Source: Minisyncoccota bacterium
GTDB taxonomy: Bacteria > Patescibacteriota > Minisyncoccia > Phycocordibacterales > UBA9973
Reading direction: 5' to 3'
Length of the DNA stretch: 64,000 nucleotides
Assembly (NCBI GenBank): GCA_031413715.1
Contig: JANOFO010000003.1
Location: 11,047-75,046, forward strand
Below, in pieces: positions 6,390 to 56,438 of the stretch. Within the stretch, counting starts at the first letter, position 1. Each line of letters starts with the position of its first letter. Both the position numbers and the translations under genes were made by a program. The notes under the pieces were generated by a model, which did no database searches, was not told the DNA's origin, and saw only the letters and a program-made list of their open reading frames with translations.

Positions 6390-6428
6390 AAAAGGAACCT
6401 TTTTGAGGTCCCTTTTAAAAAATGATTA

Positions 6429-33622: not shown

Positions 33623-34167
33623 AAATTTTCTTGTTTTTCTAACATCAATAGATCGTACCCTCTTTTAACTTCATCTTCTGGCAAAACACCCAGAGAAATA
33701 GTGAAATCTAGCAACTCTTTTCTAACTTGATCGATGTTCTCTTCTGCCATCTTTTCAACTTCAATAAATGTGCCGAGATCATCAACCTCATCAATACAAA
33801 CTTCGTATTCTCCCACCATTCCTTTCTGACGATTTTTTGTAACTGTGTTTGCAGTTTTATATCCCATCAAGAGTAGTGCTTGTTCTAGAGTTTTAGCATC
33901 TTGTATTTCTATCTCGTGCTCAATCTTAGAAAGGTTTTTGTGTTTTGAGAGATCCGCTTTTACTGTGAAAAAGAATTTGCCTTCATTTGTTTCTCTGATT
34001 CTCGGGAAATGATCATTCGTCAAATACTCAGCAACCGTACCAATTACTCTGGTATAAACCGTGTCTTTCTGTTTGACTTGTGGAGAAAAAACGCATCCAA
34101 GTGCTTCCAATTTTTCCATAATCTCTCTCTTGTCTCTAAGCTTGACCTTTATTTCAATTTCTTTCAT
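33619..34167 (-). CDS. CYTH-domain protein (CyaB/thiamine-triphosphatase-like triphosphate tunnel enzyme)
   Basis: 182 aa. N-terminal EIEIKVKL (the ExExK signature), then beta-strand-rich repeats containing acidic residues. Confidence 0.55.
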   Translation of the reverse strand: MKEIEIKVKLRDKREIMEKLEALGCVFSPQVKQKDTVYTRVIGTVAEYLTNDHFPRIRETNEGKFFFTVKADLSKHKNLSKIEHEIEIQDAKTLEQALLLMGYKTANTVTKNRQKGMVGEYEVCIDEVDDLGTFIEVEKMAEENIDQVRKELLDFTISLGVLPEDEVKRGYDLLMLEKQENL

Positions 34168-39078: not shown

Positions 39079-39540
39079 CTATTTTACCACATTTTTTGAT
39101 TCGTACTCATCTAAGTATTTTTGAGCTTGTTTGAGGGTTTGTATTCGGCCCTCCTTTTTAAATACGAATGTATTTCGAGCTTCCTCGTACGTAGCCCATT
39201 TGTAGTCGAGTATTTCCCCTTCTTGGATTTTCACAGTCTTATCTTTTACAATTCCCACAAAATATTTACAGATTTTATCGATTGTTTGTCCGTTCTTTAC
39301 AATCTCATAGCGTTCGTCTATAAGAGGAGCATCCAATAACTCTATATCAGCGATCCCAGTCTCTTCCACGAGCTCTCGCATAGCAATCACAAGGGGGTCT
39401 GTTTCCCCTTCTTCTCTTTTACCTTTAGGATAGCTCCAATTTTGATACTTTTCATCTTGAAAAAGAATGAGATATTTGTACTCTCCGTCTTCCTTAAATA
39501 CTGTTACTACTCCATAAGCCATGTGTTCAATATCGGCCAT
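39079..39540 (-). CDS. NUDIX hydrolase
   Basis: 153 aa. Nudix box (GKREEGETDPLVIAMRELVEETGI). Confidence 0.8.
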   Translation of the reverse strand: MADIEHMAYGVVTVFKEDGEYKYLILFQDEKYQNWSYPKGKREEGETDPLVIAMRELVEETGIADIELLDAPLIDERYEIVKNGQTIDKICKYFVGIVKDKTVKIQEGEILDYKWATYEEARNTFVFKKEGRIQTLKQAQKYLDEYESKNVVK

Positions 39541-43314: not shown

Positions 43315-44055
43315 TTAGATAATACTTCCAACCTTAAGACCAAGCTTGTCGCTTGCTGATTCATTTTGGACTATGATCTCAAGGAAGCGCTTTTCTCCGA
43401 AACCAGAACTCCCTCGAGTCAATGCAGGCTTGCCGTCTTTTGGAACATCAGCTAGGCGCTCGTAAAATTCGAGATCCTTCATGAAATGACTTTCATTCTC
43501 GATAAGGGTTGTCTTGCAGTTGCCGAAGTTATCTACCCTCCATACGAAGTTTTTTTCTCCGAAATCTTCGACATCTACTTCTTTTGCAGGTACATCTTCT
43601 CCTTCGCTAAGCCATTTGGCAAGATACGGTAGGTACTCAAAGCTTCTAAATTGTGAATTGGAAATCCGCAAGGCTTCATCGTGATCGAGAAACTTACTGC
43701 ATACTTCAAACACATCTGTTTCATAAACCTTGGAGAATAGCCCGAGCTTCTTGGCAAGAGGAAAGCAATTCGGCGTTCCTAGTATCAGCAATTTCCCGAG
43801 TCTGCAAAAGCAAAATGGAATACCATTTAGGTACTTTTCCTTATTGCCACGCAAGGCAACATTGATGGAAATAATGCCAGGTGCATCCTTGTAGGCATCG
43901 ATTGTATCGATAAGATCACCCTGAGCCTTTAGGCTCGATTCTACTCCGCAAAAGTTGGTGGAAATATTTTCAAGAAGACCATGGTAACGTGCTACTTGGC
44001 GCGTGCGGGCATTGTCGTCGAGGCAGTCATTGATGATTGTGACAAGTTGTGACAT
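43315..44055 (-). CDS. Hypothetical protein, possibly a divergent DUF62 / SAM hydroxide adenosyltransferase (SalL/FlA-like)
   Basis: 246 aa. C-terminal VWRVDNFGNCKTTLIENE resembles the DUF62 C-terminal ID.FGN..TN motif. A mid-region TPNCFPLAKKL weakly resembles RDIFAPVAAHL. The N-terminal motif is poorly conserved. This is weak, memory-based similarity. Confidence 0.35.
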   Translation of the reverse strand: MSQLVTIINDCLDDNARTRQVARYHGLLENISTNFCGVESSLKAQGDLIDTIDAYKDAPGIISINVALRGNKEKYLNGIPFCFCRLGKLLILGTPNCFPLAKKLGLFSKVYETDVFEVCSKFLDHDEALRISNSQFRSFEYLPYLAKWLSEGEDVPAKEVDVEDFGEKNFVWRVDNFGNCKTTLIENESHFMKDLEFYERLADVPKDGKPALTRGSSGFGEKRFLEIIVQNESASDKLGLKVGSII

Positions 44056-45955: not shown

Positions 45956-46378
45956 CTACTTCTTCCCCGTACTTCCAAACATTCCTTCTCCACGAGCTGA
46001 GTCACTGAGCGTATCAGTCTCTTCAAGTTCGCATATAGCCACAGGCACGATAACAAGCTGGGATACTTTGTCTCCTTTTTCAAAAGCATAAGGCTTGTCA
46101 GAAAGATTTACTAAAAGGGTGTTATATTCACCTCGATATCCTGCATCAAAGACTCCTCCCATATGATGCAGCCCTGCCTTGGACATGCTACTCTTGTCCA
46201 TAATTATACCACCGTAGCCGTCGGGAAATTCGAGAGCAAACCCATGCCAGAATCTATAATGCTCCATTGGCTGGATAATCTTATCCTCCATCGCATACAT
46301 ATCCATGCCAATATCTCCCGGATGAGCGTATCTTGGCAACTTCGCATTCTCTTTTAATTTTTTAACTTTGATTTTCAT
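45956..46378 (-). CDS. dut: dUTP diphosphatase
   Basis: 140 aa. ..LPRYAHPGDIGMDMYA.., ..GIIMDKSSMSKAGL.., ..GVFDAGYRGE.., ..GDKVSQLVI.. are dUTPase motifs 1-5. Confidence 0.9.
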   Translation of the reverse strand: MKIKVKKLKENAKLPRYAHPGDIGMDMYAMEDKIIQPMEHYRFWHGFALEFPDGYGGIIMDKSSMSKAGLHHMGGVFDAGYRGEYNTLLVNLSDKPYAFEKGDKVSQLVIVPVAICELEETDTLSDSARGEGMFGSTGKK

Positions 46379-46380
46379 TT

Positions 46381-46953
46381 TTATATTTTAATTATCTCTT
46401 TGACTTTCTTTACAACTTGCTTTGGTGACAAGCGAGTATTATCTATCTCTATATTATACTTCACCGGGGCAGGAGTATTCCAATCTTTTTCTTTCTTCAT
46501 TATTTGCCTCATTATCTTAGGATCAGCAAGTTTGTTCAATTTCTTCCTTGATTTCCCTGATACACGCTTGATAAGAGCATTTCGATCAGCAGTCAGGTGA
46601 ACGAAATACGCTTTCCCACCGGCCTTCTCAATAAATGATTGAATTTTCTTCACAAACATAGGATCACTTAAACCTGTCAATGAAACATAATCTGCCGAAT
46701 ACGCATGAGTAGTTACAGTATTCAAATGGCCTTTTGAGATTTCTTCAAATATAGACAATCTCAATGTTTCAACTAAACGATTGAGGTTTAGGGTGTCTCT
46801 CTCAAAAAGTTCTCTGGCAATATCGTAAGTATGGTGATTATGGAAAAATTTATATCCAGTCTGTTTTTGGAATTCTTTAGCTACTGTATATTTACCTACA
46901 GCAAACGGGCCATAGAATGTGACAACATTGAATTTGGGTTTTTTAGTTTTCAT
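46381..46953 (-). CDS. P-loop NTPase / small-molecule kinase-like protein
   Basis: 190 aa. Walker A (TFYGPFAVGKYT). It has the size and layout of the AAA_33 / nucleoside-kinase fold. Substrate unknown. Confidence 0.5.
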   Translation of the reverse strand: MKTKKPKFNVVTFYGPFAVGKYTVAKEFQKQTGYKFFHNHHTYDIARELFERDTLNLNRLVETLRLSIFEEISKGHLNTVTTHAYSADYVSLTGLSDPMFVKKIQSFIEKAGGKAYFVHLTADRNALIKRVSGKSRKKLNKLADPKIMRQIMKKEKDWNTPAPVKYNIEIDNTRLSPKQVVKKVKEIIKI

Positions 46954-47483
46954 TTAAAATTTACTGAACATTTCTAATATAGGAGGGAAAAATAGAGAAG
47001 TGACAAATTTACTTTTTTCTTGCTCAGAAAGATTTTTAATACTTTCTATAGAATACTCTTCAAATCCAGCTCCATCTTCAGGTTCGATTTTTAAATCGAA
47101 AATTGTACCAGAAAAATTATAGCCAAAAAAATATCGAAGTGCATTATTTATAGTTTTTGTTTCAGGATCTTCATTTCGAAAAAGAACCCTACCAAGATAT
47201 TTAAGATTATCAATACTTTCCTCAATACCAGTTTCTTCTCTTAATTCGTTAATCGCTGCTTGTTCAATAGTTTGATCAAGTTCAACATGGCCACTTACGG
47301 AAAAGGTTAGTTTGCCAGGATGCGTTTCTTTAGTAATTGAACGTTTCTGGAAAACAAATTTATCATTAGGTAACTTTATAAGAACAAATACCTCTGGGTG
47401 CAGTAGCCCTTTTTGGTGAACAACGGATCTTTCTTCAGAACCTATTACATCTCCACGCTCATTAATAAGAGGTATTTTCATAA
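46954..47483 (-). CDS. NUDIX hydrolase (the ORF track extends it upstream to 47613 with a hydrophobic N-terminus)
   Basis: Nudix box (SGHVELDQTIEQAAINELREETGIEE). Start taken at MKIPLINERGD. Confidence 0.7.
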
Positions 47484-47554
47484 CTACCCCAGTATAACAA
47501 AATAAACCAATCCCATGAAGAGATTGGTTTATCAATGTTTTGTTATAAATTATT

Positions 47555-47974
47555 TTACTCGTCACGAAAGTCGAGCCAAAAAGGACAATAATTACCAACT
47601 GGTTGTCCGTCAATATTTATGGGCATAGTGCCGCTGCCAATATTGAAGATTTTTTTCGCAGGATTGCCATCATTCTCATTACAAGCAAGATGACAATCTC
47701 CTTTACCAGTAGCATACACTGAGCCCATTTCTCCCCGGTAGAAACAATTTCTACATGTTCTTTGTACAACCCCATCTGTTGGAGTATATAATACTTCCGT
47801 AGGTGTTAATTCTTTTTTTGGATCATCTTTCGTTTCTGCAGCGATGAATGGCTGCCCGTTAAGGAGACGCAAGCCTCCTTTTTTAACAGTAAGACCTTTT
47901 TTCATAACAATAAGTTTATTTTTTGATTTTGAATATTCAGTTACATTATAGCACGCGAAATCCCATGTTGTCAA
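47555..47974 (-). CDS. Hypothetical Cys-rich small protein (probable start MKKGLTVKKGG.. at about 47905)
   Basis: ~116-139 aa. CRNCFYRGEMGSVYATGKGDCHLACNENDG...YCPFW, with 5-6 Cys suggesting a metal site. No family recognised. Embedded in the nucleotide operon. Confidence 0.4.
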   Translation of the reverse strand: MTTWDFACYNVTEYSKSKNKLIVMKKGLTVKKGGLRLLNGQPFIAAETKDDPKKELTPTEVLYTPTDGVVQRTCRNCFYRGEMGSVYATGKGDCHLACNENDGNPAKKIFNIGSGTMPINIDGQPVGNYCPFWLDFRDE

Positions 47975-47980
47975 TATTTA

Positions 47981-48673
47981 CTATTTAAGTAATTTTCGAA
48001 CTTTTCCATAAACCTCCTCATGTATATCTTCGCGAGTGCGGAGAATATTCTTTTGGGCACATTCTATCTGCTTGAATTCGGGCTGCGTCTTGGCGAGCCA
48101 AAGAGCGCTCTTGCGAGAATTTGTAAGGTATTCAACATTTCCTTCTACTATATCTTTCTTCTTGCCTAGATATGTGCGTTTAGATTTCTTGTTGCGTTCT
48201 TTAATAAGATTCAAGATAACAGACATCGGAAGGTTAAGATAAAAAACCACATCGGGTCGAGGAATTTTGAAAACTTTATATTCCATCTCATCTAGCCACT
48301 TTATAAATGCTGCACGCTTAGCCGCATTCTTGATCTTGCCTCCTTGGTGGATCTGATTGGCGCTCACATAGCGATTCGCAAGGACTATGTAGCCCCGCTT
48401 GAGCCAGCCTTCGATCTCTGCTTTTGATTCAAACCGGTCACCTGCATAGAGTACCGAGGCGATCTTTGGATGAACTTTGACGAAATTATAATATTGTTCA
48501 GAAAGGCAGTGACCGATAAATTTACCGAAAAAGTTCTTGTAGTATTCTGGAAAGTCTACATTCTTAACTATATACCCTTCTTTCTTTAATCTTTTAGTCA
48601 ACAAATCCACCTGGGTTGCTTTTCCGCTACCATCCGTACCGTCTATTACTATGAGTTTACCTTTTCTTTTCAT
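47981..48673 (-). CDS. tmk: Thymidylate (dTMP) kinase
   Basis: 230 aa. P-loop (IVIDGTDGSGKATQ). DRY/LID region (LYAGDRFESKAEIEGWLKRGYIVLANRYVSANQIHQGG) aligns well with the Tmk DR(H/Y)...S..AYQG block. Confidence 0.75.
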   Translation of the reverse strand: MKRKGKLIVIDGTDGSGKATQVDLLTKRLKKEGYIVKNVDFPEYYKNFFGKFIGHCLSEQYYNFVKVHPKIASVLYAGDRFESKAEIEGWLKRGYIVLANRYVSANQIHQGGKIKNAAKRAAFIKWLDEMEYKVFKIPRPDVVFYLNLPMSVILNLIKERNKKSKRTYLGKKKDIVEGNVEYLTNSRKSALWLAKTQPEFKQIECAQKNILRTREDIHEEVYGKVRKLLK

Positions 48674-48677
48674 TGTT

Positions 48678-49109
48678 CTACTTTATCGCATCGTAGTAAT
48701 TCTTGCCAGTTTTGTATGATTCAATAGCAAGACCTGTCTGTATAAATACAGGATCAGGTAACTTACCAAGATCATACCATCCCCAATCTTCAAGTTTTTC
48801 AGGTTCGAGTACCTGCGGTTCTCCGCTTTCCCAATCAGCAAGTAAGACTATATTTACATAATGCTTTGGAGCATAGTGAAAAATATTTCCTACATGCAAG
48901 AATCGAATATTTTTAATCTGAATTCCTGTTTCCTCTAATGTTTCACGTCGAGCACAATCTTCAAATGACTCCATGTACTCTAGATGTCCACCTGGAAATG
49001 CATATTCACCTATGCCATGGGAACTTTTCCGCTTACCCATCAAGACCTTGCCATCTTTCAAGATCATGATCCCCATACCAACTCTTGGTCTTTGATTTTC
49101 TGTATCCAT
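48678..49109 (-). CDS. NUDIX hydrolase
   Basis: 143 aa. Nudix box (GGHLEYMESFEDCARRETLEETGI). Confidence 0.8.
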   Translation of the reverse strand: MDTENQRPRVGMGIMILKDGKVLMGKRKSSHGIGEYAFPGGHLEYMESFEDCARRETLEETGIQIKNIRFLHVGNIFHYAPKHYVNIVLLADWESGEPQVLEPEKLEDWGWYDLGKLPDPVFIQTGLAIESYKTGKNYYDAIK

Positions 49110-49110
49110 A

Positions 49111-49518
49111 TTATTTTAAAAACTTATTTAGAATTATTTTTACATCATTCAAATCTTTATACTCTTCTACTTGGAATGCACTGTTGCCACTCACCATAGC
49201 AGAAAGTGATTTATCTGGGACATGTCTGTAGAGACAGAGTACTTTTTTATGTAGATTCTCGGCAATCCCGAGCTCATAGCCTACGCCAAGCGATGGAGTC
49301 GTAACTTCGGCCACTATCATGTCGGAATTTTTGAGCCATTTCATATCTCTATTGTATATAAACTCTGCAGCCTTTTGTTCCCCTTTTTCAGATATGCTAG
49401 CATCACCAATATGCTCAGTCAGAATTTCTCCGTAACTTTTCAATATCTCTATAATCTGAACATACAACTCTCTATCATCTCGCCCTCCCCGTATTGAACC
49501 TGCAAAGTATATTTTCAT
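49111..49518 (-). CDS. 2'-deoxynucleoside 5'-phosphate N-hydrolase (DNPH1/Rcl family)
   Basis: 135 aa. KIYFAGSIRGGRDDRELY...ILTEHI...VAEVTTPSLGVGYELG...SLSAMV...FQVEEY aligns closely along its length with my memory of the animal DNPH1/Rcl sequence, including the catalytic E in VGYELG. Confidence 0.75.
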   Translation of the reverse strand: MKIYFAGSIRGGRDDRELYVQIIEILKSYGEILTEHIGDASISEKGEQKAAEFIYNRDMKWLKNSDMIVAEVTTPSLGVGYELGIAENLHKKVLCLYRHVPDKSLSAMVSGNSAFQVEEYKDLNDVKIILNKFLK

Positions 49519-49523
49519 AATTA

Positions 49524-50087
49524 CTATTCTAAATTAAATTTGTTTAAAAATAAATCGATCTCCTTATGGAAAGCTTCCAAGTCAGAATTATTCAGAATAG
49601 AATAATCTGCAAGTTTCAGACATTCAAAAACTCGCGGTAAATTTGGCAGAGAATTCTCAGTTTTTTCATTTTGAATAAATTCTTCTAATGTTGTTGCTTC
49701 TCCTAATTTATTGCGATTTACGCTTCTTTCAAATCGAACTTTTGTATCAGCTTCAATTACAAGCAATGCAAGGTTTGAATTCGCACGCATATATTCTATT
49801 GTGCCCAAAATTCGCATGCCAGTTATTATCCCTCTATCACCAGTGATTCTATTTAGAGCAAGTCTGGCAAAATGATCAGGACCCTTTTCCTTAACAAGAC
49901 TATTGCCTATCTTGATGAGATTTTCTCTCGTTGGTTCGATATTGTCTTCCTTTGCTAGATCTCTCAATATCTCGCTTATTGGGGAAGAAGGTATTTTTAA
50001 TTTTTTCGAAATATATTCTGCTGCCGTATCTTTACCAGAACTAATAGTACCAATAATACCAATTATAGTTTTTCTTCCTTGGTTCAT
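49524..50087 (-). CDS. dNMP kinase-like P-loop kinase (phage T4 gp1-like SGKDT motif)
   Basis: 187 aa. IIGIIGTISSGKDTAAEYI matches the T4 gp1 motif GVKRSGKDTTADFI. The overall size is also similar to gp1. Confidence 0.5.
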   Translation of the reverse strand: MNQGRKTIIGIIGTISSGKDTAAEYISKKLKIPSSPISEILRDLAKEDNIEPTRENLIKIGNSLVKEKGPDHFARLALNRITGDRGIITGMRILGTIEYMRANSNLALLVIEADTKVRFERSVNRNKLGEATTLEEFIQNEKTENSLPNLPRVFECLKLADYSILNNSDLEAFHKEIDLFLNKFNLE

Positions 50088-50088
50088 A

Positions 50089-50550
50089 TCATTTCGTTCC
50101 TAACTCTTTTAAAGCTTCGGTTGCGAGGTGCAAAACATTAGGACGAAGGTTCATATTGTTAAGCTCCTCCTTGCTGACCCAACGTGTTTCAGTAAGCTCG
50201 TGCTCGCTTTCCGAATTTAAAACCTTATCGGAATCCGTTGTAGCAAAATATACAAGAACAATATGTTCGTGTGTTTCATTTACCAAATGTTTTCCTAAGT
50301 ATCGAGGAGACGGCAGATAAGAATAATCGTCGTCATCAAAAATAGGAACTTCGCTTTGTATCTTAATATCTAATCCGACCTCTTCTTTCACTTCACGATA
50401 CGCTGCCTCGATGGGATCCTCATCAAGTTCTATATGCCCGCCAACAGAAAGCCAAATTTTATACTTGTCATGCATCCGAAGAAGCACCTTGTCCTTGTAA
50501 ACAATGAATACTTCTACTGTATAGTCGACTTTTTCGTGAAGGTGGGGCAT
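50089..50550 (-). CDS. NUDIX hydrolase
   Basis: 153 aa. Nudix box (GGHIELDEDPIEAAYREVKEEVGL). Confidence 0.8.
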   Translation of the reverse strand: MPHLHEKVDYTVEVFIVYKDKVLLRMHDKYKIWLSVGGHIELDEDPIEAAYREVKEEVGLDIKIQSEVPIFDDDDYSYLPSPRYLGKHLVNETHEHIVLVYFATTDSDKVLNSESEHELTETRWVSKEELNNMNLRPNVLHLATEALKELGTK

Positions 50551-50551
50551 G

Positions 50552-50980
50552 TTAATTAATCATACCAATAATCTCGCTAATATACTTATCTAAATTCTCT
50601 AGTGTTTTTAATTCTTCAGCCAAGAACCACTCATATTTATCATGCTCATCGCTAAGCTTTACTTTCCCTTTAGCCTGTCCTACATATGTAAGCCGGACGA
50701 CATGCTTATCTTCCTTTAATATATCTTGAGCAGAGAGGAGCTTTGGTTCCCCAACAAGTTCAAGCCCTGTTTCTTCAAGAACTTCTCTTTTAAGATTCTC
50801 TAAAAGAGAGACTCCTATATCTATTCGTCCTCCTGGAATATCCCAGATATCACGATCTTTTATTTCCGGATATTTCTCTTTAGAACGCTGAAGCAGGAGA
50901 TAGTTCCCTTCTTCATTTCTCAATAAAATTTTTACGCCAACTTGGAGATTCATATAAATAGAATATAACAAAAACAACAT
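50552..50980 (-). CDS. NUDIX hydrolase, first gene of the long minus-strand nucleotide operon
   Basis: 142 aa. Nudix box (GGRIDIGVSLLENLKREVLEETGLE). Confidence 0.75.
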   Translation of the reverse strand: MLFLLYSIYMNLQVGVKILLRNEEGNYLLLQRSKEKYPEIKDRDIWDIPGGRIDIGVSLLENLKREVLEETGLELVGEPKLLSAQDILKEDKHVVRLTYVGQAKGKVKLSDEHDKYEWFLAEELKTLENLDKYISEIIGMIN

Positions 50981-51003
50981 CAGAAATCCACCAGATCCAA
51001 AAG

Positions 51004-51037
51004 TGACACAAATTAGGCCATGGCGTAATTTGTGTCA
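51004..51037. promoter_or_regulatory. 34-bp palindrome 1 (TGACACAAATTAGGCCA|TGGCGTAATTTGTGTCA), a probable operator in the divergent promoter region
   Basis: 16 of 17 positions are self-complementary. Centred on CCATGG. It lies between the minus-strand NUDIX operon start (50980) and the plus-strand wHTH gene start (51066). Its right arm overlaps a candidate -35 for the plus-strand gene. Confidence 0.6.
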
Positions 51038-51065
51038 GTGTTGCTACAATGATAGAATAAGTTAT

Positions 51066-51545
51066 ATGTCTATAGTTGGGGAAATTTTGAAAGAATTGTG
51101 GGAAACTGAACATACCTATAAAGGTACTAAGGTAAACATCTTCGGTATCCCTCGTTTTAAAAAGTACTCCAAACGAACTTTGCGCTCTACTATCGACAGG
51201 CTTGCCAAAAAAGAAATAATTCAAAAAGAGATAGCTGGCATCGTCCTTTCAAAAAATGGTAGGCGTTATGTCAAAAGGAAGATGGACTCGCTTCACTCAT
51301 TTGAAAAACCTGACTATGCTTCTCTGTCAAAGAATCTCGTCGTTATGTTTGATATTCCTACGGAAAGAAAAGCGGAGCGAGAATGGCTGCGTTTCCATTT
51401 AAAAAAGTTTGGTTACATTATGATACAAAAAAGTGTGTGGGTTGGGCCTTCTCCTCTACCGAAAGAATTTAAAGATTATATTAAGAGCATTAAACTTCAT
51501 AATTGCATAAAAACATTTAAGCTGGCTAAACCATACAAAACATAA
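51066..51545 (+). CDS. Small winged-helix + Cas2-like (VapD/Cas2 fold) protein, a putative regulator
   Basis: 160 aa from the ATG at 51066. The ORF track's upstream GTG start only translates the palindrome. N-terminal K/R-rich wHTH-like region (..RSTIDRLAKKEIIQKEIAGIVLSKNGRRYV..). C-terminal LVVMFDIPTERKAEREWLRFHLKKFGYIMIQKSVWVGP resembles the Cas2 core (..VYDI...R...L...G.R.Q.SVF..). Confidence 0.45.
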   Translation: MSIVGEILKELWETEHTYKGTKVNIFGIPRFKKYSKRTLRSTIDRLAKKEIIQKEIAGIVLSKNGRRYVKRKMDSLHSFEKPDYASLSKNLVVMFDIPTERKAEREWLRFHLKKFGYIMIQKSVWVGPSPLPKEFKDYIKSIKLHNCIKTFKLAKPYKT

Positions 51546-51565
51546 TTATATAAGTAAAATCATGG

Positions 51566-51599
51566 TGACACATTTTCTGCCATGGCAGAAAATGTGTCA
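51566..51599. promoter_or_regulatory. 34-bp perfect palindrome 2 (TGACACATTTTCTGCCA|TGGCAGAAAATGTGTCA)
   Basis: Perfect 17+17 inverted repeat, 20 nt after the stop of the wHTH/Cas2-like gene. It shares the outer TGACACA/TGTGTCA and central CCATGG with palindrome 1. No flanking T-run, so it is not a typical intrinsic terminator. Confidence 0.6.
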
Positions 51600-51643
51600 A
51601 ACGTAAAAGTTATAATATATAGTAGATGCTTAATCTAAAATAT

Positions 51644-52222
51644 TTATAGATATTCTATTAATTGCTCATAGACTTCTGGTCTGTTCACTCGCAATGTTTC
51701 CCCTGTTTTGGTTGGAAGCTTAGCCATAGAAAGACCATATTGGTTGGCAAATGCAATAATTTTGTCCTCGGCAGCTTTGATCTCTGATTCATCGTTAACC
51801 AAAAGTTCTATTTCGCACGCTTTGAGTCCTGTTTCTATCTCGTCAATATCAATTAAAAATCCTTCTTTCTTATACTTCGTACGGTGAGTAGTAAAGCTTA
51901 CAAGTTCTTCTAAATTTTTCTTTACTTCAGTTTCTAAATAACTATCTGTATCAAATCCTAGTTTCTCGAGAATTTCTTTCTCATTTGTAATTTCTATAGC
52001 ATGCTTAGCTTTTTCGTTAGTGTCAGTTCCTATCTGAATCTTGAGTTCATAACTGCCATCTCGTTTACGCAATTTTATTTTCGCTTCACTTTTAAAATAA
52101 TCAAATGTGGGAGTATCGTAATAAATATCTCGAATTGATTTGTCTTCAACAAATTCTGCTCCTTCAAGCAAAGCTTTGAGCTGTTCATATGTTGGTTGAA
52201 ATTTCTTTTCTATCTCAATCAT
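51644..52222 (-). CDS. CYTH-domain protein (triphosphate tunnel metalloenzyme), co-operonic with glyA
   Basis: 192 aa. N-terminal MIEIEKKF (ExExK) and alternating acidic beta strands (..ELKIQIGTDTNEK.., ..EIELLVNDESE..). Its start overlaps the glyA stop (ATGA). Confidence 0.55.
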   Translation of the reverse strand: MIEIEKKFQPTYEQLKALLEGAEFVEDKSIRDIYYDTPTFDYFKSEAKIKLRKRDGSYELKIQIGTDTNEKAKHAIEITNEKEILEKLGFDTDSYLETEVKKNLEELVSFTTHRTKYKKEGFLIDIDEIETGLKACEIELLVNDESEIKAAEDKIIAFANQYGLSMAKLPTKTGETLRVNRPEVYEQLIEYL

Positions 52223-53496
52223 ACAAAACTCTTTGGTATCGGGTGCTTATGGGCTAGGGCTTTTACTTTCTCTTTTATTTCGGCTTTTTTGTCTGCATTA
52301 TCTTTGTTCTTGAGGGTCTCAATAAGGAGCTTGGCAACTTCGGCACAATCTTCTTCTTTGAATCCACGAGTAGTGATGGCTGGCGTGCCGAAACGAATAC
52401 CGGATGGATCAAGTGGCTTACGGGTATCATTTGCGATCGAGTTCATATTAAGGGTAATACCAACTTCATCAAGTACCGTCTGAGCTTCCTTTCCTGTAAC
52501 CCCAAGGGAGCCAAATACATCAGCAAGGATGAGGTGGTTATCTGTTCCCCCGCCGATCATGCGGACACCTTCATCTTTCAGAACTTTCTCCATTGCTTTG
52601 GCATTTTTTAATATCTGAGCTGCATATACTTTAAATTCTGGTCGGAGAGCTTCACCGAAGGCGATAGCTTTCGCAGCAATCGTGTGCATATGCGGGCCGC
52701 CTTGAATGCCTGGAAAGATAGATTTATCTATCTTTTTTGCGATCTCTTCATTCTCTCTAGTGAGGATCATACCACCACGCGGACCGCGAAGAGTTTTATG
52801 AGTAGTGGTTGTGATGATATCAAATCCGAAATCAAATGGATTTGGCAAAACTTTTGCAGCTATGAGTCCTGCGATGTGCGCCATATCAGCCATTGTGATC
52901 GCACCGACTTCTTTTGCAATGTCAACAAACTTCTGATAATTAAGATTGCGGGAATAAGCAGAGAATCCGGCAAGAATTATTTTAGGTTTCTTCTCGATTG
53001 CTACCTGGCGAAGGGCTTCATAGTCGATCTCGCCTGTCTCCGGATCTTTCATCTTGTAAGTCACGAAATTATAGATCTTTGCAGGAAGGGTCATCGGGTG
53101 GCCGTGTGTAAGATGCCCGCCATGAGAGAGATCCATGCCGAGCACGGTATCGCCGGGTTCAAGAAGAGCAGAGTAAACAGCAAGGTTGGCAGGGGCGCCG
53201 GAGTGTGGCTGAACATTCGCGAATTTGCAATCAAAAAGCTTGCACGCCCTTTCAATTGCCAATCGCTCGACTTGATCGGTAAATTCCTGCCCTCCGTAAT
53301 AACGACGTCCAGGATAGCCTTCAGAGTATTTGTTGGTAAGAACTGAGCCGTTGGCTTCCCGAACCGCCATAGAGACATAATTCTCGGAAGGTATTAGCTC
53401 AAGACCATCTTCTTCCCGTAATGTTTCCCCTTCTATCGCTTGTAGTATTTCCTTGTCTTGTTCTTCTATATACATCCCGATAGTGAAAAATGGCAT
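52219..53496 (-). CDS. glyA: Serine hydroxymethyltransferase
   Basis: 425 aa. ..LELIPSENYVSMAVREANGSVLTNKYSEGYPGRRYYGG.., PLP-Lys region (TTTTHKTLRGPRGG). Confidence 0.9.
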   Translation of the reverse strand: MPFFTIGMYIEEQDKEILQAIEGETLREEDGLELIPSENYVSMAVREANGSVLTNKYSEGYPGRRYYGGQEFTDQVERLAIERACKLFDCKFANVQPHSGAPANLAVYSALLEPGDTVLGMDLSHGGHLTHGHPMTLPAKIYNFVTYKMKDPETGEIDYEALRQVAIEKKPKIILAGFSAYSRNLNYQKFVDIAKEVGAITMADMAHIAGLIAAKVLPNPFDFGFDIITTTTHKTLRGPRGGMILTRENEEIAKKIDKSIFPGIQGGPHMHTIAAKAIAFGEALRPEFKVYAAQILKNAKAMEKVLKDEGVRMIGGGTDNHLILADVFGSLGVTGKEAQTVLDEVGITLNMNSIANDTRKPLDPSGIRFGTPAITTRGFKEEDCAEVAKLLIETLKNKDNADKKAEIKEKVKALAHKHPIPKSFV

Positions 53497-53630
53497 TATG
53501 TGTTGGCCGTTTTCAATTTTAATTAAGTAATAGTATAAAGCTAGGTTTTAAAACTAACTCCAGTGGTATCCCCGCACATGATAGGCTATGCCATTTTCTA
53601 CTACGGGATACATACACCGATTTTAGCATG

Positions 53631-53658
53631 TTGAACAAGAAATCAAAAACTGTATAAT
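53631..53658 (+). promoter_or_regulatory. Sigma70-like promoter of the thyX-like/dcd operon
   Basis: TTGAAC-16 nt-TATAAT, ending 6 nt before the ATG at 53665 (a very short leader). Confidence 0.5.
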
Positions 53659-53664
53659 GAGACT

Positions 53665-55020
53665 ATGCAATCTGGTAATATTGAAGAGCTCAAACACACA
53701 AAAGTGTCAATCAATGGCGGAGGAGTGGTCATCATCCTAGATACTGGATCAGTGATAGGACCTGAATCTTCGGCGATGCTACAAGCTCTTCACTCAAGAT
53801 CAACAAGTGGGCTTGAAGGTCATCTTGAAATTCTAGCTAAAAGAGGTTCTGAGAATTTCATGAAGAATTTCTATGTCGGATACGGACACAAATCTATCGG
53901 TGACTGTGGTACTGCATCTATTTTTATCGAAGGAGTATCTCTGCTTGTTGCAAAAGCTATACAAGACTGGCCTCTATATTCCGGACAAGAATCTTCTACA
54001 AGATATGTGGATTTCAGAGTACAACCTTTCAAAAATCCCATGGGTTTTGATGAGGGAAATAAAATACTAGAAACTTGGAGACAATTTTACATAGATTCAT
54101 TTGATAAGACGGTGGAATATTTAAAAACTCAATTCCCGATCGGCGAAGGAGAATCAGAATCTATTTATATAAAAGCAATAAATGCTCGGGCTTTTGATAC
54201 CTTACGTGGATTCCTACCAGCAGGTGCAGTTACAAACCTCGCTTGGTCTACCAACCTACGCCAAGCGGCGGATAAATTACTTGTTCTGCGACATCATCCA
54301 CTTTTGGAAGTCCGAGAAACAGCCGAAGCAATAGAGAAAGCTTTGATTGGAGCATACCCAAATTCGTTCGGCCACAAGAGATACGAAGCCACAGAAGAAT
54401 ACAATAAATATTGTATGGAGAATGATTACTATTATCACAATCCTAAATGTCCAGATTTCGAGATGACTTCAAATTCTATTGATGTAAAACTTCTACCGAG
54501 AGAAACACTCGAAAAACGTCCAGCAAAAACAGAACTGCCAAAACATTTGGGCGAATCTGGCACTATCCAATTTGAATTCCTACTTGATTTCGGATCATTC
54601 CGAGATATACAGAGACATCGTGCCATAATCCAGCGAATGCCATTACTGACAACAGAGCTCGGATTTGAAGAATGGTATATATATGAACTTCCAGAATCTA
54701 TACGAGAAAAAGCAAAAGCACTTTTAAAATCACAGGAGGAGAAAATTGCGTCACTCTCTATTTCGAAAGAAGAGAAGCAATATTATATAGCAATGGGTTA
54801 CAAAATTTCTAATCGCATAACCGGTAATCTACCTTCACTAGTATATTTGGCAGAGCTCCGCGCAACACGATTCGTCCACCCTACTCTTCGCAAGAGAGCG
54901 AAACAACTTGCAGACAAATTATCGGAGATATTTGGGAAGGATGGCTTGATAATTCACTTAGACGAAGAACCCGACCGATTTGACATAAAGCGTGGTGAGC
55001 ACGATATTGTGCTAAAATAA
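53665..55020 (+). CDS. Long, divergent ThyX-like (flavin-dependent thymidylate synthase family) protein
   Basis: 451 aa. GHKSIGDCGTASIFIEGVSLLVAKAIQDWPLYSGQESSTRY aligns to the ThyX core (GHxSPFEHxxFTFxIEG.S....Q..RHR-X7-S..RY), but DWP replaces the RHR. A separate RHR occurs later (FRDIQRHRAIIQRM) and an LR..R..H block follows (AELRATRFVHPTLRK). The protein is about twice the length of a canonical ThyX. Based on a memory-based alignment only. Confidence 0.5.
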   Translation: MQSGNIEELKHTKVSINGGGVVIILDTGSVIGPESSAMLQALHSRSTSGLEGHLEILAKRGSENFMKNFYVGYGHKSIGDCGTASIFIEGVSLLVAKAIQDWPLYSGQESSTRYVDFRVQPFKNPMGFDEGNKILETWRQFYIDSFDKTVEYLKTQFPIGEGESESIYIKAINARAFDTLRGFLPAGAVTNLAWSTNLRQAADKLLVLRHHPLLEVRETAEAIEKALIGAYPNSFGHKRYEATEEYNKYCMENDYYYHNPKCPDFEMTSNSIDVKLLPRETLEKRPAKTELPKHLGESGTIQFEFLLDFGSFRDIQRHRAIIQRMPLLTTELGFEEWYIYELPESIREKAKALLKSQEEKIASLSISKEEKQYYIAMGYKISNRITGNLPSLVYLAELRATRFVHPTLRKRAKQLADKLSEIFGKDGLIIHLDEEPDRFDIKRGEHDIVLK

Positions 55021-55024
55021 TACT

Positions 55025-55561
55025 ATGATTCTCTCTGATACGAAGATACTTGAGCATGTAGAAAAGGGCGATATAGTTATAACGCCATTTGATGTCGCCA
55101 ACATGGGTGGCAATTCGTATGATGTGCATTTGAGTAAATATTTTGCTCAATATATTGATAGTGAAATTGACGCAAAAAAGCATAATCAAATAAAACATTT
55201 TGAAATACGAGAAGAAGGATTCGTACTCATGCCCGGTGAGCTATACCTTGCCTCTACCCTAGAATACACAGAGTCGCATATCCACGTGCCATTCCTAGAA
55301 GGAAAATCTTCTACTGGCAGACTTGGCGTAGATATACATGCGACAGCAGGCAAAGGCGATGTCGGGTTCTGCGGATATTGGACTCTTGAAATCTCAACAT
55401 CAAAACCGGTGCGCATTTATCCTGGTATGCCGATTGGACAGCTCATTTACTATGTCGTAGAAGGTCCAGTCGAGCGTCTCTATCATAAAAAAGCGACAGC
55501 CAAGTATTCTCATCAAGAGAACTTACCAAAGGAGTCAATGATGTGGAAAAATTTTAAATAA
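55025..55561 (+). CDS. dcd: dCTP deaminase
   Basis: 178 aa. MILSDTKILEHVEKGDIVITPFD...GNSYDVHL...GELYLASTLEYT...GKSSTGRLGV is typical Dcd. Confidence 0.85.
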   Translation: MILSDTKILEHVEKGDIVITPFDVANMGGNSYDVHLSKYFAQYIDSEIDAKKHNQIKHFEIREEGFVLMPGELYLASTLEYTESHIHVPFLEGKSSTGRLGVDIHATAGKGDVGFCGYWTLEISTSKPVRIYPGMPIGQLIYYVVEGPVERLYHKKATAKYSHQENLPKESMMWKNFK

Positions 55562-55562
55562 G

Positions 55563-55598
55563 AAATGGCTGGTTCCTTAATAAAGGAACCAGCCATTT
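55563..55598. terminator. Bidirectional hairpin between dcd and pnp
   Basis: aaatggctggttcc-ttaataa-aggaaccagccattt (14-bp stem). Confidence 0.55.
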
Positions 55599-55616
55599 GA
55601 ATAAAATGAAAAATTC

Positions 55617-56438
55617 TTAAAGAGCTTTAATCACTGACGACAGGTAACTACCAAGCTGTCCCGAGAATTGCTTGGCCTTTTTTATATTATCTTCATGCGA
55701 ATGAATTCCAACAGCGTCGTTTGTAATAAACGCAAGTGAGAGAACTCTCGTTTTGTAGAGGGCTGCAACAGCAACTTCTGGTATTGTACTCATGCCTACT
55801 GCTTTGGCACCTGTATATGATAAGGCTAATTTGTCATATTTGCGACCTTCGAAGTTAGGGCCGAGCACCATAACATAGCCACCGGTGACAATCTTTCCGT
55901 TATACGCTTTCCGATTTTGGAGAGCGAGTTTCATTAGATCCTTGGACAATACATCGTCCGGTGAAGCGAATTCACTCACCCATAGAGGAAGTGGTACGTA
56001 CAGACTGACAAAGCCATCAATAACAACTAGGCACCCAGGCTCCAGTTTACTCTTTGGTAGTGCTCCTGCTGCACAGGTTGTAATCAACGTCTTAACACCT
56101 AATTTCATTAAAATTTCAGTTTGCAACCTAACCATCAAATAAATTGCTAGGCTACAAGGCTCTTCGTTCAGATGGATCCGTCCCTGTAGAACAATCACTT
56201 CTTTTCCTGCAACAGTACCATGGACAAACCTTCTGTTGTGGCCCTCTAACTTTCCCAATCTTGAAAAGCCAGGAACCTTTTCAAAGTTGATATACTGTGG
56301 ATTTTCAATCTTCAACTTATCCCCCCAACCTGTTCCCAAAATGATGCCAAGCCGAATGGGTTTTTTAATTTTAAATTTTTTACGTAAAAAATCAGCAGCT
56401 TTTGTCGCGGCAATTTCGCGGTTTCTATTTCTTTTCAT
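55617..56438 (-). CDS. Purine nucleoside phosphorylase / MTA phosphorylase (PNP-UDP family, trimeric type)
   Basis: 273 aa. ..LGIILGTGWG.., ..HNRRFVHGTVAGKEVIVLQGRIHL.., ..TTCAAGAL.., ..MSTIPEVAVA.. Confidence 0.8.
   Translation of the reverse strand: MKRNRNREIAATKAADFLRKKFKIKKPIRLGIILGTGWGDKLKIENPQYINFEKVPGFSRLGKLEGHNRRFVHGTVAGKEVIVLQGRIHLNEEPCSLAIYLMVRLQTEILMKLGVKTLITTCAAGALPKSKLEPGCLVVIDGFVSLYVPLPLWVSEFASPDDVLSKDLMKLALQNRKAYNGKIVTGGYVMVLGPNFEGRKYDKLALSYTGAKAVGMSTIPEVAVAALYKTRVLSLAFITNDAVGIHSHEDNIKKAKQFSGQLGSYLSSVIKAL

Follow-up and report, generated by a model that had tools for sequence, protein, structure and literature searches.

The dCTP-deaminase route by which Gram-negative bacteria form dTTP depends on the products of dcd, dut, thyA or thyX, and tmk, genes that are scattered in model bacteria. 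Bacteriophage T4 carries a precursor gene set consisting of td, frd, cd, the gene 1 dNMP kinase and the gene 56 dCTPase/dUTPase. Gene pairs of thyA and folA are also known, as is a ThyX form of the Chloroflexi in which two Thy1-like halves are joined in a single polypeptide. In animals, the nucleotide pool is sanitized by DNPH1 (also known as Rcl), an N-hydrolase of 5-hydroxymethyl-dUMP (hmdUMP; PMC10603095; PMC10483697), its known physiological substrate (PMC10603095).

These systems are compared here with a stretch of 64,000 nucleotides (hereafter the window) from Minisyncoccota bacterium GCA_031413715.1 (JANOFO010000003.1, positions 11,047 to 75,046 of the forward strand), a member of the Patescibacteria with a tiny genome. 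Sixteen consecutive genes at 45956-56438 (~10 kb) form a real cluster containing dut, tmk, glyA, a duplicated ThyX of 451 aa, dcd, a DNPH1 orthologue, four NUDIX genes, two to three P-loop kinases, a CYTH protein, a PaaX/Cas2-like candidate regulator and a purine nucleoside phosphorylase (PNP). Genes related to nucleotide or folate metabolism account for 14 of the 16, against 2-3 of the 23 annotated genes outside the span (Fisher p ~1e-6), in support of the functionally coherent deoxynucleotide gene set proposed in an initial annotation of this DNA. The order and strands of the genes given there are upheld, as are most of its family assignments. Curated NCBIfam cutoffs are exceeded by dut, dcd and glyA, and Pfam cutoffs by tmk, ThyX, and the NUDIX, CYTH and PNP genes. 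The block probably represents (at roughly 70%) a thymidylate, or dTTP-precursor, island of the Patescibacteria with a conserved core and changeable nucleotide helpers.

The core has the same families and reaction order as the Gram-negative route. Unlike in model bacteria, all five steps, including folate recharge by GlyA, lie within 10 kb, and unlike in the Gram-negative route, the synthase is a duplicated ThyX and the block adds DNPH1, four NUDIX genes, CYTH and extra kinases. As in the T4 set, genes for thymidylate synthase and a deaminase are combined with those for a dUTP/dCTP pyrophosphatase function, a dNMP kinase and a folate enzyme; the block differs from that set in being cellular, chromosomal, anchored by aminoacyl-tRNA synthetase genes and devoid of a hydroxymethylase. 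Since the core is common to many relatives, the block is best regarded as ordinary metabolism in an unusually complete form rather than as a new kind of system, and the earlier statement that no operon of this composition had been described holds for the exact accessory set only, the core arrangement being widespread.

Among the core genes, dut (45956..46378, minus strand) encodes a dUTP diphosphatase of 140 aa (PF00692, E 5.5e-23) scoring 109.4 bits against TIGR00576 (cutoff 102.55), and dcd (55025..55561, plus strand) encodes a dCTP deaminase (PF22769, E 7e-37) scoring 119.5 bits against TIGR02274 (cutoff 92.8). The dTMP kinase gene tmk (47981..48673, minus strand, 230 aa) matches PF02223 (E 2.4e-18, 67 bits) and reaches 72 bits against TIGR00041, under the cutoff of 83. 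The supplier of methylene-tetrahydrofolate (methylene-THF), serine hydroxymethyltransferase, is encoded by glyA (52219..53496, minus strand; PF00464, E 8.5e-158; NF000586, 579 bits).

The flavin-dependent thymidylate synthase gene thyX (53665..55020, plus strand) encodes a long, internally duplicated protein whose earlier assignment is backed by PF02511 (66 bits); it scores 29 bits against the TIGR02170 equivalog, under the cutoff of 88. Both halves are Thy1-like (49 bits for the N-half and 20.5 bits for the C-half). The N-half keeps the counterparts of Thermotoga maritima E86, S88, R90, Y91, R147 and R174, and the C-half keeps the RHR triad; motif loss is complementary, the N-half lacking RHR and the C-half lacking the Ser-x-Arg-Tyr segment. 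This complementarity sets the protein apart from the Chloroflexi form, whose two-half layout it shares. Solved ThyX structures in the PDB gave no sequence-level match, and a low-confidence AF2 model (pLDDT 57) retrieved only ThyX structures among its top 50 Foldseek matches (E 6e-5). There are more than 4,000 long ThyX homologues, the best 120 of which are each at least 70% identical, and the long form, with 60-85% conservation across Patescibacteria, is a highly conserved housekeeping protein of hundreds of patescibacterial species.

Synteny was assessed in 80 loci with long ThyX, one per GTDB species, 42 of which had long flanks. In 33 of these 42 loci, one or more of dut, tmk, glyA and dcd are found no more than 10 kb from long thyX, and in the other nine thyX has no core partner nearby. 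For individual genes, dut is found within 10 kb in 21/42 (50%), tmk nearby in 21/42 (50%), glyA divergent from thyX in 19/42 (45%), argS nearby in 43% and dcd nearby in 16/42 (38%). Two orders recur, namely ileS-argS-dut-(tmk)-glyA followed by thyX-(dcd) on the opposite strand, and kinase-thyX-dut-tmk. The genes are thus clustered rather than scattered in relatives, as the reading in the initial annotation required, and HMM support exists for its DNPH1 and ThyX assignments and, weakly, for its dNMP kinase. In locus L082, where glyA is 94% and tmk 92% identical to the window genes, the backbone is the same (ileS-argS-dut-g2-g3-g4-tmk-NUDIX-glyA, ending at htrA; genes are numbered from dut), and PF00303 ThyA, DHFR (folA), dCMP deaminase and an ADK-like kinase replace thyX and dcd in situ. 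Versions of the block with ThyA and FolA also occur in L093, L094, L102 and L122, and folA adjoins thyA in this variant as it does in the known gene pairs. Accessory genes vary even among close relatives; L002, which has the closest ThyX (84% identity), is without DNPH1, g2, g3, g4, CYTH and PNP.

The DNPH1 orthologue, g7 (49111..49518, minus strand, 135 aa), belongs to the 2'-deoxynucleoside 5'-phosphate N-hydrolases, an assignment made earlier and upheld by PF05014 (66 bits) and by matches to rat and human DNPH1 in the PDB (E 1e-35 to 1e-33). It is 50% identical to rat Rcl over its full length. The nine functional residues of human DNPH1 in its complex with hmdUMP (Y24, I29, E55, H56, I76, D80, S98, E104 and S128; PMC10603095) are all conserved (Y4, I9, E35, H36, I54, D58, S76, E82 and S106), so that g7 and the animal enzyme agree in their catalytic triad, E55/H56 pair, phosphate-binding serines and base-stacking isoleucines. 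It differs in being bacterial, in lying within a thymidylate gene block and in having a host without a known source of hmdUMP, whether by TET or by deamination chemistry. More than 7,000 homologues are present in metagenomes; proteins of this type carry the database label 'nucleoside 2-deoxyribosyltransferase'. In the window and in L004, L009, L024, L088, L093, L102 and L122, DNPH1 is part of the thymidylate block and adjoins tmk or is one gene away, with either a ThyX- or a ThyA-type synthase. DNPH1 works at the dNMP level, which fits the position of g7 beside tmk.

The NUDIX genes of the span number four (48-77 bits in Pfam) and not the five first counted, since the fifth (39079-39540) lies outside it, just after ileS. 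The first, g3 (46954..47481, minus strand, 175 aa from an internal ATG; PF00293, E 1.8e-12), belongs to an IDI/YfcD-like branch, with IPP isomerase and YfcD as best NCBIfam models, both under cutoff; its Nudix box, GHVELDQTIEQAAINELREETGI, keeps the EE pair and carries E6 to Q and R14 to N substitutions, and its orthologue in L082 is 66% identical. A canonical box is present in g6 (48678..49109, minus strand, 143 aa; E 1.8e-21), which has unspecific, sub-threshold matches to MutT and NAD-diphosphatase models and orthologues in L002 (83%) and L082 (61%), and in g9 (50089..50550, minus strand, 153 aa; E 3.9e-16), whose best NCBIfam model is of NudB type (44.6 bits, under cutoff). The fourth, g10 (50552..50980, minus strand, 142 aa; E 7.3e-19), has an orthologue only in L002 (70% identical). 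The CYTH (triphosphate tunnel metalloenzyme) protein g12 (51644..52222, minus strand; PF01928, E 9.2e-18) has counterparts within the block in L009, L102 and L082.

Two of the P-loop proteins are divergent. The product of g2 (46381..46953, minus strand, 190 aa) has only sub-threshold matches to CoaE, AAA_18, Cytidylate_kin and dNK and no relative in the PDB; it is probably deoxynucleoside-kinase-like, its 72% identical orthologue in L082 aligning with positions 5-182 of the Pfam dNK profile (length 203; E 6.5e-5, under cutoff). Its Walker A motif (GPFAVGKY) has Tyr in the usual Ser/Thr position, and kinase activity may therefore be lacking. The product of g8 (49524..50087, minus strand, 187 aa) has an NMP-kinase fold and the P-loop SGKDT (AAA_18, AAA_17), with matches to PRK08356 (E 1.3e-18, under cutoff), the phage PHROG 139 'dNMP kinase' (E 3.6e-15), the kinase-like domain of the PADLOC dCTPase model (E 7.5e-13) and SSO1041/AdkA-like structures in the PDB (E 1e-5). 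It was initially described as a T4-gp1-like dNMP kinase, for which PHROG 139 gives weak HMM backing; Pfam DNMK and tblastn against 50,697 phage genomes gave no match, and T4 gp1 appears to have only the P-loop in common with g8. On these profiles, g8 is dNMP-kinase-like only remotely. The g8 and g9 genes form a conserved pair (g9 then g8 in L002, L083, L034, L041 and L062), and in 7 of the 42 loci with long flanks the gene immediately preceding thyX encodes a g8-like kinase.

The small protein g4 (47555..47905, minus strand, 116 aa) has four invariant cysteines (C51, C54, C71 and C107) and no match in Pfam, NCBIfam, PHROG or PADLOC; sequence search found 52 representatives in 1.84 billion proteins, and in L082 (where g2, g3 and g4 are 66-72% identical to the window genes) and L083 it likewise lies between tmk and a g3-type NUDIX gene. 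The wHTH/Cas2-like character first noted for g11 (51003..51545, plus strand) is confirmed by PF20803 PaaX_M (E 9.5e-14) and Cas2 (E 3.4e-5), the PADLOC Cas2 models covering the C-terminal domain only, and in L002 a homologue separates thyX from folA/dcd. The true start of g11 may be the ATG at 51066.

The ten minus-strand genes from dut to g10 were at first described as one tightly overlapping operon. They are tightly packed, with gaps of 0-5 nt inside units when realistic start codons are used, but they abut rather than overlap, and a ~75-nt gap on each side of g4 interrupts them. One gap contains an extended-TG sigma-70 consensus matching at 12/12 positions (47974..47945) and the other a T-tailed hairpin of 14 bp (47533..47501); the ten genes thus probably form three transcription units, g10-g9-g8-DNPH1-g6-tmk, g4 alone, and g3-g2-dut running into argS; promoter and terminator counts in the region do not exceed the shuffled expectation, and the model leans on these few strong sites. 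A hairpin (51566-51599) separates g11 from the CYTH gene, whose start and the glyA stop share 4 nt, and dcd starts 4 nt past the thyX stop. The predicted glyA-CYTH and thyX-dcd units would diverge from a shared control region of 168 bp (53497..53664), in which a promoter-like TTGAAC-16-TATAAT (53631-53658) ends 6 nt before the thyX ATG. No Rfam riboswitch was found in the entire 64-kb window.

Going by the curated families and by what is established of the pathway, Dcd would convert dCTP to dUTP, Dut would convert dUTP to dUMP, the duplicated ThyX would methylate dUMP to dTMP with methylene-THF as donor, and Tmk would phosphorylate dTMP to dTDP. GlyA would make methylene-THF from serine and THF, and because ThyX returns THF, DHFR would not be required. 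Salvaged deoxynucleosides or dNMPs are probably brought into the pool by g2 and g8, and unwanted (d)NTPs are probably hydrolysed by the four NUDIX enzymes, the CYTH triphosphatase-fold protein and Dut. The DNPH1 orthologue probably destroys non-canonical dNMPs ahead of phosphorylation, with hmdUMP or dUMP as candidate substrates by analogy with the animal enzyme, and g11 is a candidate local regulator. The sanitation roles predicted for the NUDIX, CYTH and DNPH1 genes are plausible. Import and salvage, initially seen as the purpose of the module, are not borne out as such, the conserved heart being an endogenous dCTP-to-dTDP route with folate recharge and the 16-gene block containing no transporter.

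The accessory genes (four NUDIX, CYTH, g2, g4, g8, DNPH1, PNP and g11) might instead be passengers of a thymidylate cluster that have accumulated in a variable slot, prone to recombination and flanked by the conserved anchors argS/dut and htrA, without a dedicated pool-sanitation module. Accessory content indeed differs in each of L002, L004, L009, L024, L082 and L083, thymidylate-block genes occur in only ~7 of 35 DNPH1 loci of at least 6 kb, GC content falls to 0.36-0.38 over 46-52 kb (~0.40-0.44 elsewhere) and g4 has its own consensus promoter and hairpin. Moreover, elsewhere in the window the fifth NUDIX gene and another CYTH gene adjoin aminoacyl-tRNA synthetase genes, and some accessory genes may therefore be passengers. 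As an account of the whole set this is nevertheless unlikely, since the genes swapped in are nearly all nucleotide-related in every relative (NUDIX, kinases, DNPH1, CYTH, DHFR and deaminases), the g9-g8 pair and the tmk-DNPH1 adjacency are kept where ThyX is only ~60% identical, and the 0-5 nt gaps imply co-transcription with tmk or dut.

A module that makes or excludes a modified pyrimidine such as 5-hydroxymethyl-dU, an alternative raised initially, would require hydroxymethylase or alternative transferase activity of ThyX, phosphorylation of the modified dNMP by the gp1-like kinase, and control of the pool by DNPH1 and NUDIX enzymes. The divergence of ThyX, the phage PHROG match of g8 and the substrate of DNPH1 are compatible with such chemistry, and an intermediate of the ThyX reaction can be trapped as 5-hydroxymethyl-dUMP (PMC3498832). 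This reading is very improbable, however, because plain thyA, folA and dCMP deaminase genes at the thyX/dcd site of the near relative L082 are strong evidence for ordinary thymidylate; ThyA is also as frequent as ThyX in DNPH1-bearing blocks, the conserved long ThyX keeps its dUMP- and FAD-binding residues, g8 is without a phage tblastn match, and transferases that modify DNA bases, whether glycosyl-, amino- or other, are absent from the block. Still harder to credit is an anti-phage nucleotide-depletion island in which dCTP deaminase, NUDIX, CYTH and PNP effectors would act with the Cas2-like protein. It draws on the PADLOC dCTPase and Cas2 matches of g8 and g11 and on matches of g9 and g10 to the PADLOC candidate PDC-S07, but each of these matches concerns a generic fold at the domain level; dcd, CYTH, PNP, g2, g3 and g4 have no PADLOC match, and CRISPR/cas genes are absent. 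Its context, among ileS, argS and htrA and syntenic in many species with housekeeping dut, tmk and glyA, already largely refutes such a function.

Within the thymidylate island, PNP (55617..56438, minus strand; PF01048, E 8.7e-30, 104 bits; PRK08202, 162 bits, under cutoff) is the weakest member of the cluster. None of the 80 thyX loci has a counterpart; the gene runs in the same direction as htrA, and a convergent hairpin of 16 bp (55563-55598) stands between it and dcd.

The sixteen genes between positions 45956 and 56438 of the window, obtained by listing the ORFs of the 43-59 kb region and scanning them against Pfam and NCBIfam, occur in the order given by the initial annotation. Ten minus-strand genes, numbered from dut, comprise dut itself (45956-46378; TIGR00576, 109.4 bits against a cutoff of 102.55), a weak P-loop kinase gene (g2, 46381-46953), a NUDIX gene (g3, 46954-47481), a cysteine-rich gene matching no family (g4, 47555-47905), tmk (47981-48673), a second NUDIX gene (g6, 48678-49109), a gene for a PF05014 protein (g7, 49111-49518), an AAA_18-type kinase gene (g8, 49524-50087) and two further NUDIX genes (g9, 50089-50550; g10, 50552-50980). 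They are followed by a plus-strand gene for a wHTH protein with a PaaX_M/Cas2-like domain (g11, 51003-51545), minus-strand CYTH (g12, 51644-52222) and glyA (52219-53496) genes, the plus-strand pair thyX (53665-55020), encoding a 451-aa Thy1-domain protein, and dcd (55025-55561; TIGR02274, 119.5 bits against a cutoff of 92.8), and a minus-strand PNP-family gene (55617-56438). Nucleotide- or folate-related genes make up 14 of the 16 in the block, against 2-3 of the 23 annotated elsewhere in the window (Fisher p ~1e-6). We read the core of the block, with a probability of about 0.8, as a route from dCTP to dTDP, in which Dcd would convert dCTP to dUTP, Dut would hydrolyze dUTP to dUMP, ThyX would form dTMP from dUMP using CH2-THF regenerated by GlyA, and Tmk would phosphorylate dTMP to dTDP. 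The PNP gene, which a 16-bp convergent hairpin sets apart from dcd and which runs in the same direction as htrA, is only a loosely attached member.

The minus-strand genes had been described as a single operon of overlapping genes; with realistic start codons they abut instead, with gaps of 0-5 nt. Eight junctions are of this kind, and a gap of about 75 nt lies on either side of g4. One gap contains a 12/12 match to the sigma-70 consensus (TTGACA-18-TATAAT with an extended TG, 47974..47945) and the other a 14-bp hairpin with a T-tail (47533..47501), which together make three transcription units more likely than one; this prediction draws on the individual strong sites, as the numbers of promoter and terminator sites in the region do not exceed shuffled expectation. 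The best promoter-like site for thyX (TTGAAC-16-TATAAT, 53631-53658, plus strand) leaves 6 nt to the ATG, and the transcript of thyX-dcd may therefore have little or no leader. A search of the whole window with Rfam at the gathering threshold returned three tRNAs only, and hence no THF or ZTP riboswitch between glyA and thyX. The GC content across 46000-52000, the part holding the accessory genes, is 0.356-0.378, compared with approximately 0.40-0.44 in most of the window, which is consistent with faster gene turnover there.

The assignment of the long, internally duplicated protein to ThyX is backed by PF02511 (Thy1), which it matches in two stretches at 66.2 bits against a cutoff of 24.8; the N-terminal half scores 49.3 bits and the C-terminal half 20.5 bits, under the cutoff, and the whole protein falls below the TIGR02170 equivalog cutoff (29.1 against 87.9 bits). 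Phmmer and profile searches with the whole protein and with its separate halves found no sequence match to any solved ThyX. An AF2 model built from a shallow alignment is poor (pLDDT 56.7, pTM 0.62), and a Foldseek search of the PDB with this low-confidence model gave a top 50 consisting entirely of ThyX structures (E from 6e-5, target TM 0.45-0.54). Alignment by hhalign with Thermotoga maritima ThyX, whose sequence was verified against PDB 1KQ4/1O26, is collinear and statistically weak; it places E109, S111, R113, Y114, R181, and R209 of the N-terminal half opposite T. maritima E86, S88, R90, Y91, R147, and R174. This half reads Q100...E109-S110-S111-T112-R113-Y114 but has D-W-P at the RHR position, and the C-terminal half keeps R317-H318-R319 and lacks the Ser-x-Arg-Tyr segment, so that the contiguous RHR-x7-S-x-R-Y motif (T. 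maritima numbering) is present in neither half and its residues are split across both. Such complementary loss suggests a fused pseudo-heterodimer, each half of which would retain its own portion of an active site formed between subunits. In 2009 a duplicated ThyX was reported from Chloroflexi and called uncharacterized (PMC3224940). Homologues of the long ThyX number more than 4,000, the best 120 of which are at least 70% identical to it.

Functional evidence for this protein comes from a locus of a close relative, L082, reached through a look-up of g4 homologues. L082 shares the backbone of the window, ileS-argS-dut-g2-g3-g4-tmk-NUDIX-...-glyA with htrA at the end, at identities of 94% for glyA, 92% for tmk, 75% for argS, and 66-72% for g2, g3, and g4. 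The position of thyX-dcd is occupied there by genes for a PF00303 ThyA, DHFR, a dCMP/cytidine deaminase, an ADK-like kinase, and a CYTH protein. Blocks of the ThyA/FolA type were also seen in four other loci (L093, L094, L102, and L122), and from genomic context ThyA and DHFR stand in the slot of thyX in L082, L094, L102, and L122. ThyA oxidizes its folate and therefore needs DHFR, which ThyX does not; dCMP deaminase yields dUMP at the monophosphate level, and Dcd with Dut does so at the triphosphate level. The substitution is thus chemically coherent. As evidence from context, it speaks strongly for ordinary dTMP as the product of the long ThyX and for the block as the thymidylate island of this lineage.

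Clustering of these genes in relatives was also borne out. In a survey of 80 long-ThyX loci, one per GTDB species with 10-kb flanks, searched by tblastn with the window proteins, 33 of the 42 long-flank loci keep one or more of the core partners tmk, dut, glyA, and dcd near thyX. Within 10 kb of thyX in these 42 loci, tmk and dut are each found in 50%, glyA in 45%, argS in 43%, and dcd in 38%; the g8-like kinase gene is found in 17%, the g9-like NUDIX gene in 10%, and DNPH1 in 7%. Two arrangements recur. One, which the window also shows, is ileS-argS-dut-(tmk)-glyA with thyX-(dcd) after it on the opposite strand; the second is kinase-thyX-dut-tmk, at times preceded by a g9-like NUDIX gene. The accessory genes vary. 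L002, whose ThyX is 84% identical to that of the window, has tmk, g6, g9, g8, g10, g11, and folA and is without DNPH1, g2, g3, g4, CYTH, and PNP; DNPH1 and g9 are present in L004, L009, and L024. A folA (DHFR) homologue lies directly downstream of the long thyX in L034 (9235-), L041 (11407-), and L064 (1764-), and near it in L002 (12002-), after a PaaX-like gene. ThyX does not use up reduced folate in the manner that ties ThyA to DHFR; folA beside the long thyX may serve the salvage of oxidized folates. A lineage-specific insertion in L083 places an adh_short (short-chain dehydrogenase) gene (5935-6627) between glyA and g9-g8-tmk.

Among the accessory genes, the initial description of g7 as DNPH1-like holds. 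Comparison of the protein with solved structures gave E 1e-35 to 1e-33 for rat and human DNPH1 and E 0.1 for the best nucleoside 2-deoxyribosyltransferase chain; full-length identity to rat Rcl is 50%. In the human DNPH1-hmdUMP complex, functions are assigned to the Y24/D80/E104 triad, to E55 and H56, to S98 and S128' (phosphate binding), and to I29 and I76 (base stacking) (PMC10603095). Y24, D80, E104, E55, H56, S98, S128, I29, and I76 correspond to g7 Y4, D58, E82, E35, H36, S76, S106, I9, and I54, all of which are invariant among 13 aligned sequences (12 metagenomic homologues and rat Rcl) except I54, which is nearly so. Judged by sequence similarity and these residues, g7 is a genuine DNPH1/Rcl orthologue. 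Its homologues exceed 7,000, mostly from Patescibacteria and including at least one DPANN-type archaeon, and are generally annotated in databases as "nucleoside 2-deoxyribosyltransferase". Thymidylate-block genes are present in about 7 of the 35 loci of at least 6 kb within a survey of 80 metagenomic loci centered on DNPH1 homologues; in those loci DNPH1 usually adjoins tmk directly (L088, L093, L102, and L122) and the synthase is ThyA. The tmk-DNPH1 linkage is therefore recurrent, confined to a minority of loci, and not tied to synthase type. The human enzyme favors hmdUMP, with slow cleavage of dUMP and canonical dNMPs (PMC10483697), and hmdUMP has been found as an acid-trapped intermediate of flavin-dependent ThyX (PMC3498832). 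Removal of ThyX-derived hmdUMP by DNPH1 was considered and rejected, as the DNPH1-bearing blocks of L089, L093, L094, L102, and L122 have ThyA and FolA, and thyX lies within 8 kb of DNPH1 in none of the DNPH1-centered loci.

The g8 protein, whose NMP-kinase fold includes a P-loop reading SGKDT, had been called T4-gp1-like. It matches phage PHROG 139 ("dNMP kinase") over its full length (E 3.6e-15), the kinase-like domain of the PADLOC dCTPase model (E 7.5e-13), archaeal PRK08356 below the cutoff, and a Sulfolobus SSO1041/AdkA-like structure (E 1e-5). It has no match to Pfam DNMK (PF21448) at E 0.01 or better, its L083 orthologue shows only a "faint" precomputed match to that family, tblastn against 50,697 phage genomes gave no match, and a BLASTP alignment with T4 gp1 is limited to the SGKDT P-loop. 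The T4-gp1-like label is therefore a remote one, valid at best at the superfamily level. All kinase matches of g2 are sub-threshold, and its Walker A motif, GPFAVGKY, is without the usual Ser/Thr; its 72% identical orthologue in L082 aligns to nearly the whole Pfam dNK profile (E 6.5e-5), and g2 is probably a divergent deoxynucleoside-kinase-like protein.

Five NUDIX genes had been counted in the span, which holds four; a fifth follows ileS immediately, at 39079-39540. The four block proteins match PF00293 above the cutoff (48-77 bits). The Nudix boxes of g6 and g9 follow the canonical pattern G-x5-E-x7-R-E-U-x-E-E-x-G-U. In g10 the first Glu is replaced by Val, and in g3 the first Glu and the Arg are replaced by Gln and Asn, respectively; the catalytic Glu-Glu pair is kept in all four. 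Their best NCBIfam matches (IDI/YfcD, MutT/NAD diphosphatase, NudB, and MutT-like) all score far below the cutoffs, and therefore no substrate can be assigned.

The g4 protein belongs to a small family described by no library searched and carrying four invariant cysteines (C-x2-C-F-[YF]-R ... D-C ... V-G-x-Y-C-P-x-W). A full HMMER scan of 1.84 billion protein representatives found 52 members, a word-based search having given 4, and some homologues are C-terminal domains of 200-360-aa proteins. The family has no Pfam relative, including when ten relatives were scanned, and no PDB match with its profile; the AF2 model is unusable (pLDDT 33). With its own consensus promoter upstream and hairpin downstream, between tmk and a NUDIX gene, g4 looks like a self-contained inserted mini-gene, predicted to be strongly expressed. 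A role as ThyX-specific redox partner was rejected because L082, which has ThyA, also carries g4. A HiPIP-like 4Fe-4S protein, considered from a likeness in Cys spacing, was set aside on the absent PDB profile match and the absent Pfam matches in the ten relatives. A viral origin of g4 or g8 was likewise rejected, neither having a tblastn match in the phage genomes and g4 having no relative in IMG/VR.

Around the core, the accessory genes may form a layer of salvage, clean-up, and regulation, a proposal to which we give somewhat less than even odds and in which all specificities are predicted: g2 and g8 would act as salvage kinases, the four NUDIX proteins, CYTH, and Dut would hydrolyze unwanted (d)NTPs, DNPH1 would destroy non-canonical dNMPs ahead of Tmk, and g11 would serve as local regulator. 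That these genes are instead passengers in a variable slot is rather unlikely; the differing accessory content of the relatives speaks in its favor. The suggestion in the initial annotation that the block synthesizes or avoids a modified pyrimidine is highly improbable, since the in-place exchange for ThyA/FolA in relatives argues against it and indicates ordinary dTMP. An anti-phage nucleotide depletion island would accommodate the PADLOC hit of g8, but such matches are domain-level only and the idea is scarcely credible. A broader combination of the accessory proposals is speculative, and we would not bet on it as a whole. It holds that bacterial and archaeal DNPH1, with thousands of members in Patescibacteria and DPANN-type metagenomes mislabeled as "nucleoside 2-deoxyribosyltransferase", would be an ancient dNMP gate paired with Tmk, which in episymbionts living on scavenged nucleic acids would clear hmdUMP, dUMP, or other damaged dNMPs before they reach Tmk. 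The NUDIX-plus-kinase pair g9-g8 and CYTH would perform the equivalent cleaning on dNTPs, the 451-aa ThyX would be a pseudo-heterodimer with complementary half-sites, and g4 would be a new metal-binding accessory of the island.

All of the enzyme families are already known and the pathway is textbook; the block is a lead for comparative genomics and enzymology and not a categorically new system. What is new is the degree of co-location, its conservation across Patescibacteria, the one-slot exchange of ThyX and Dcd for ThyA, FolA, and dCMP deaminase, the linkage of a close DNPH1 orthologue to tmk, the uncharacterized duplicated ThyX, and the orphan four-cysteine protein. No description of a Patescibacteria thymidylate/salvage cluster or of a bacterial DNPH1 was found in the open-access papers searched. 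Patescibacteria are thought to depend on scavenged nucleotides, and the block indicates that they keep, and tightly co-locate, the one branch that is not reliably scavenged, the formation of dTMP from dCTP. Non-orthologous displacement is cleanly illustrated by the exchange between close relatives, which also provides functional evidence for a duplicated ThyX present in thousands of genomes. The DNPH1 orthologue beside tmk suggests a widespread microbial counterpart of the hmdUMP-type sanitation studied in human cancer cells, and its homologues offer a small, tractable family for work on DNPH1 specificity; the block likewise points to possible substrates and partners of several orphan NUDIX, CYTH, and kinase families.

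Several genes flanking the block have features of their own. The isoleucyl-tRNA synthetase (39542-43057, minus strand; 1171 aa) carries a histidine-phosphatase insert (PGAM-like, PF00300; residues 514-669, E 1.5e-29) between two parts of its catalytic domain, an architecture identical in L082. The fifth NUDIX gene, also on the minus strand, begins 1 nt past the ileS stop, and a second CYTH gene (33619-34167, minus strand) abuts a class-II aminoacyl-tRNA synthetase gene (34169-35467); such paralogues therefore adjoin tRNA synthetase genes outside the block too. Between ileS and argS lies a SAM hydroxide adenosyltransferase/SAM hydrolase-like gene (43315-44055, minus strand), with a weak C-terminal PF20257 match (E 6.6e-5) and a counterpart in the same position in L083 at 57% identity; its product would release adenosine from SAM, a nucleoside-producing activity beside the block. 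Farther away, the 955-aa product of 24670-27537 (minus strand) combines Kelch-repeat beta-propeller matches with a peptidoglycan-binding domain at its C terminus, an unusual pairing in a reduced genome.
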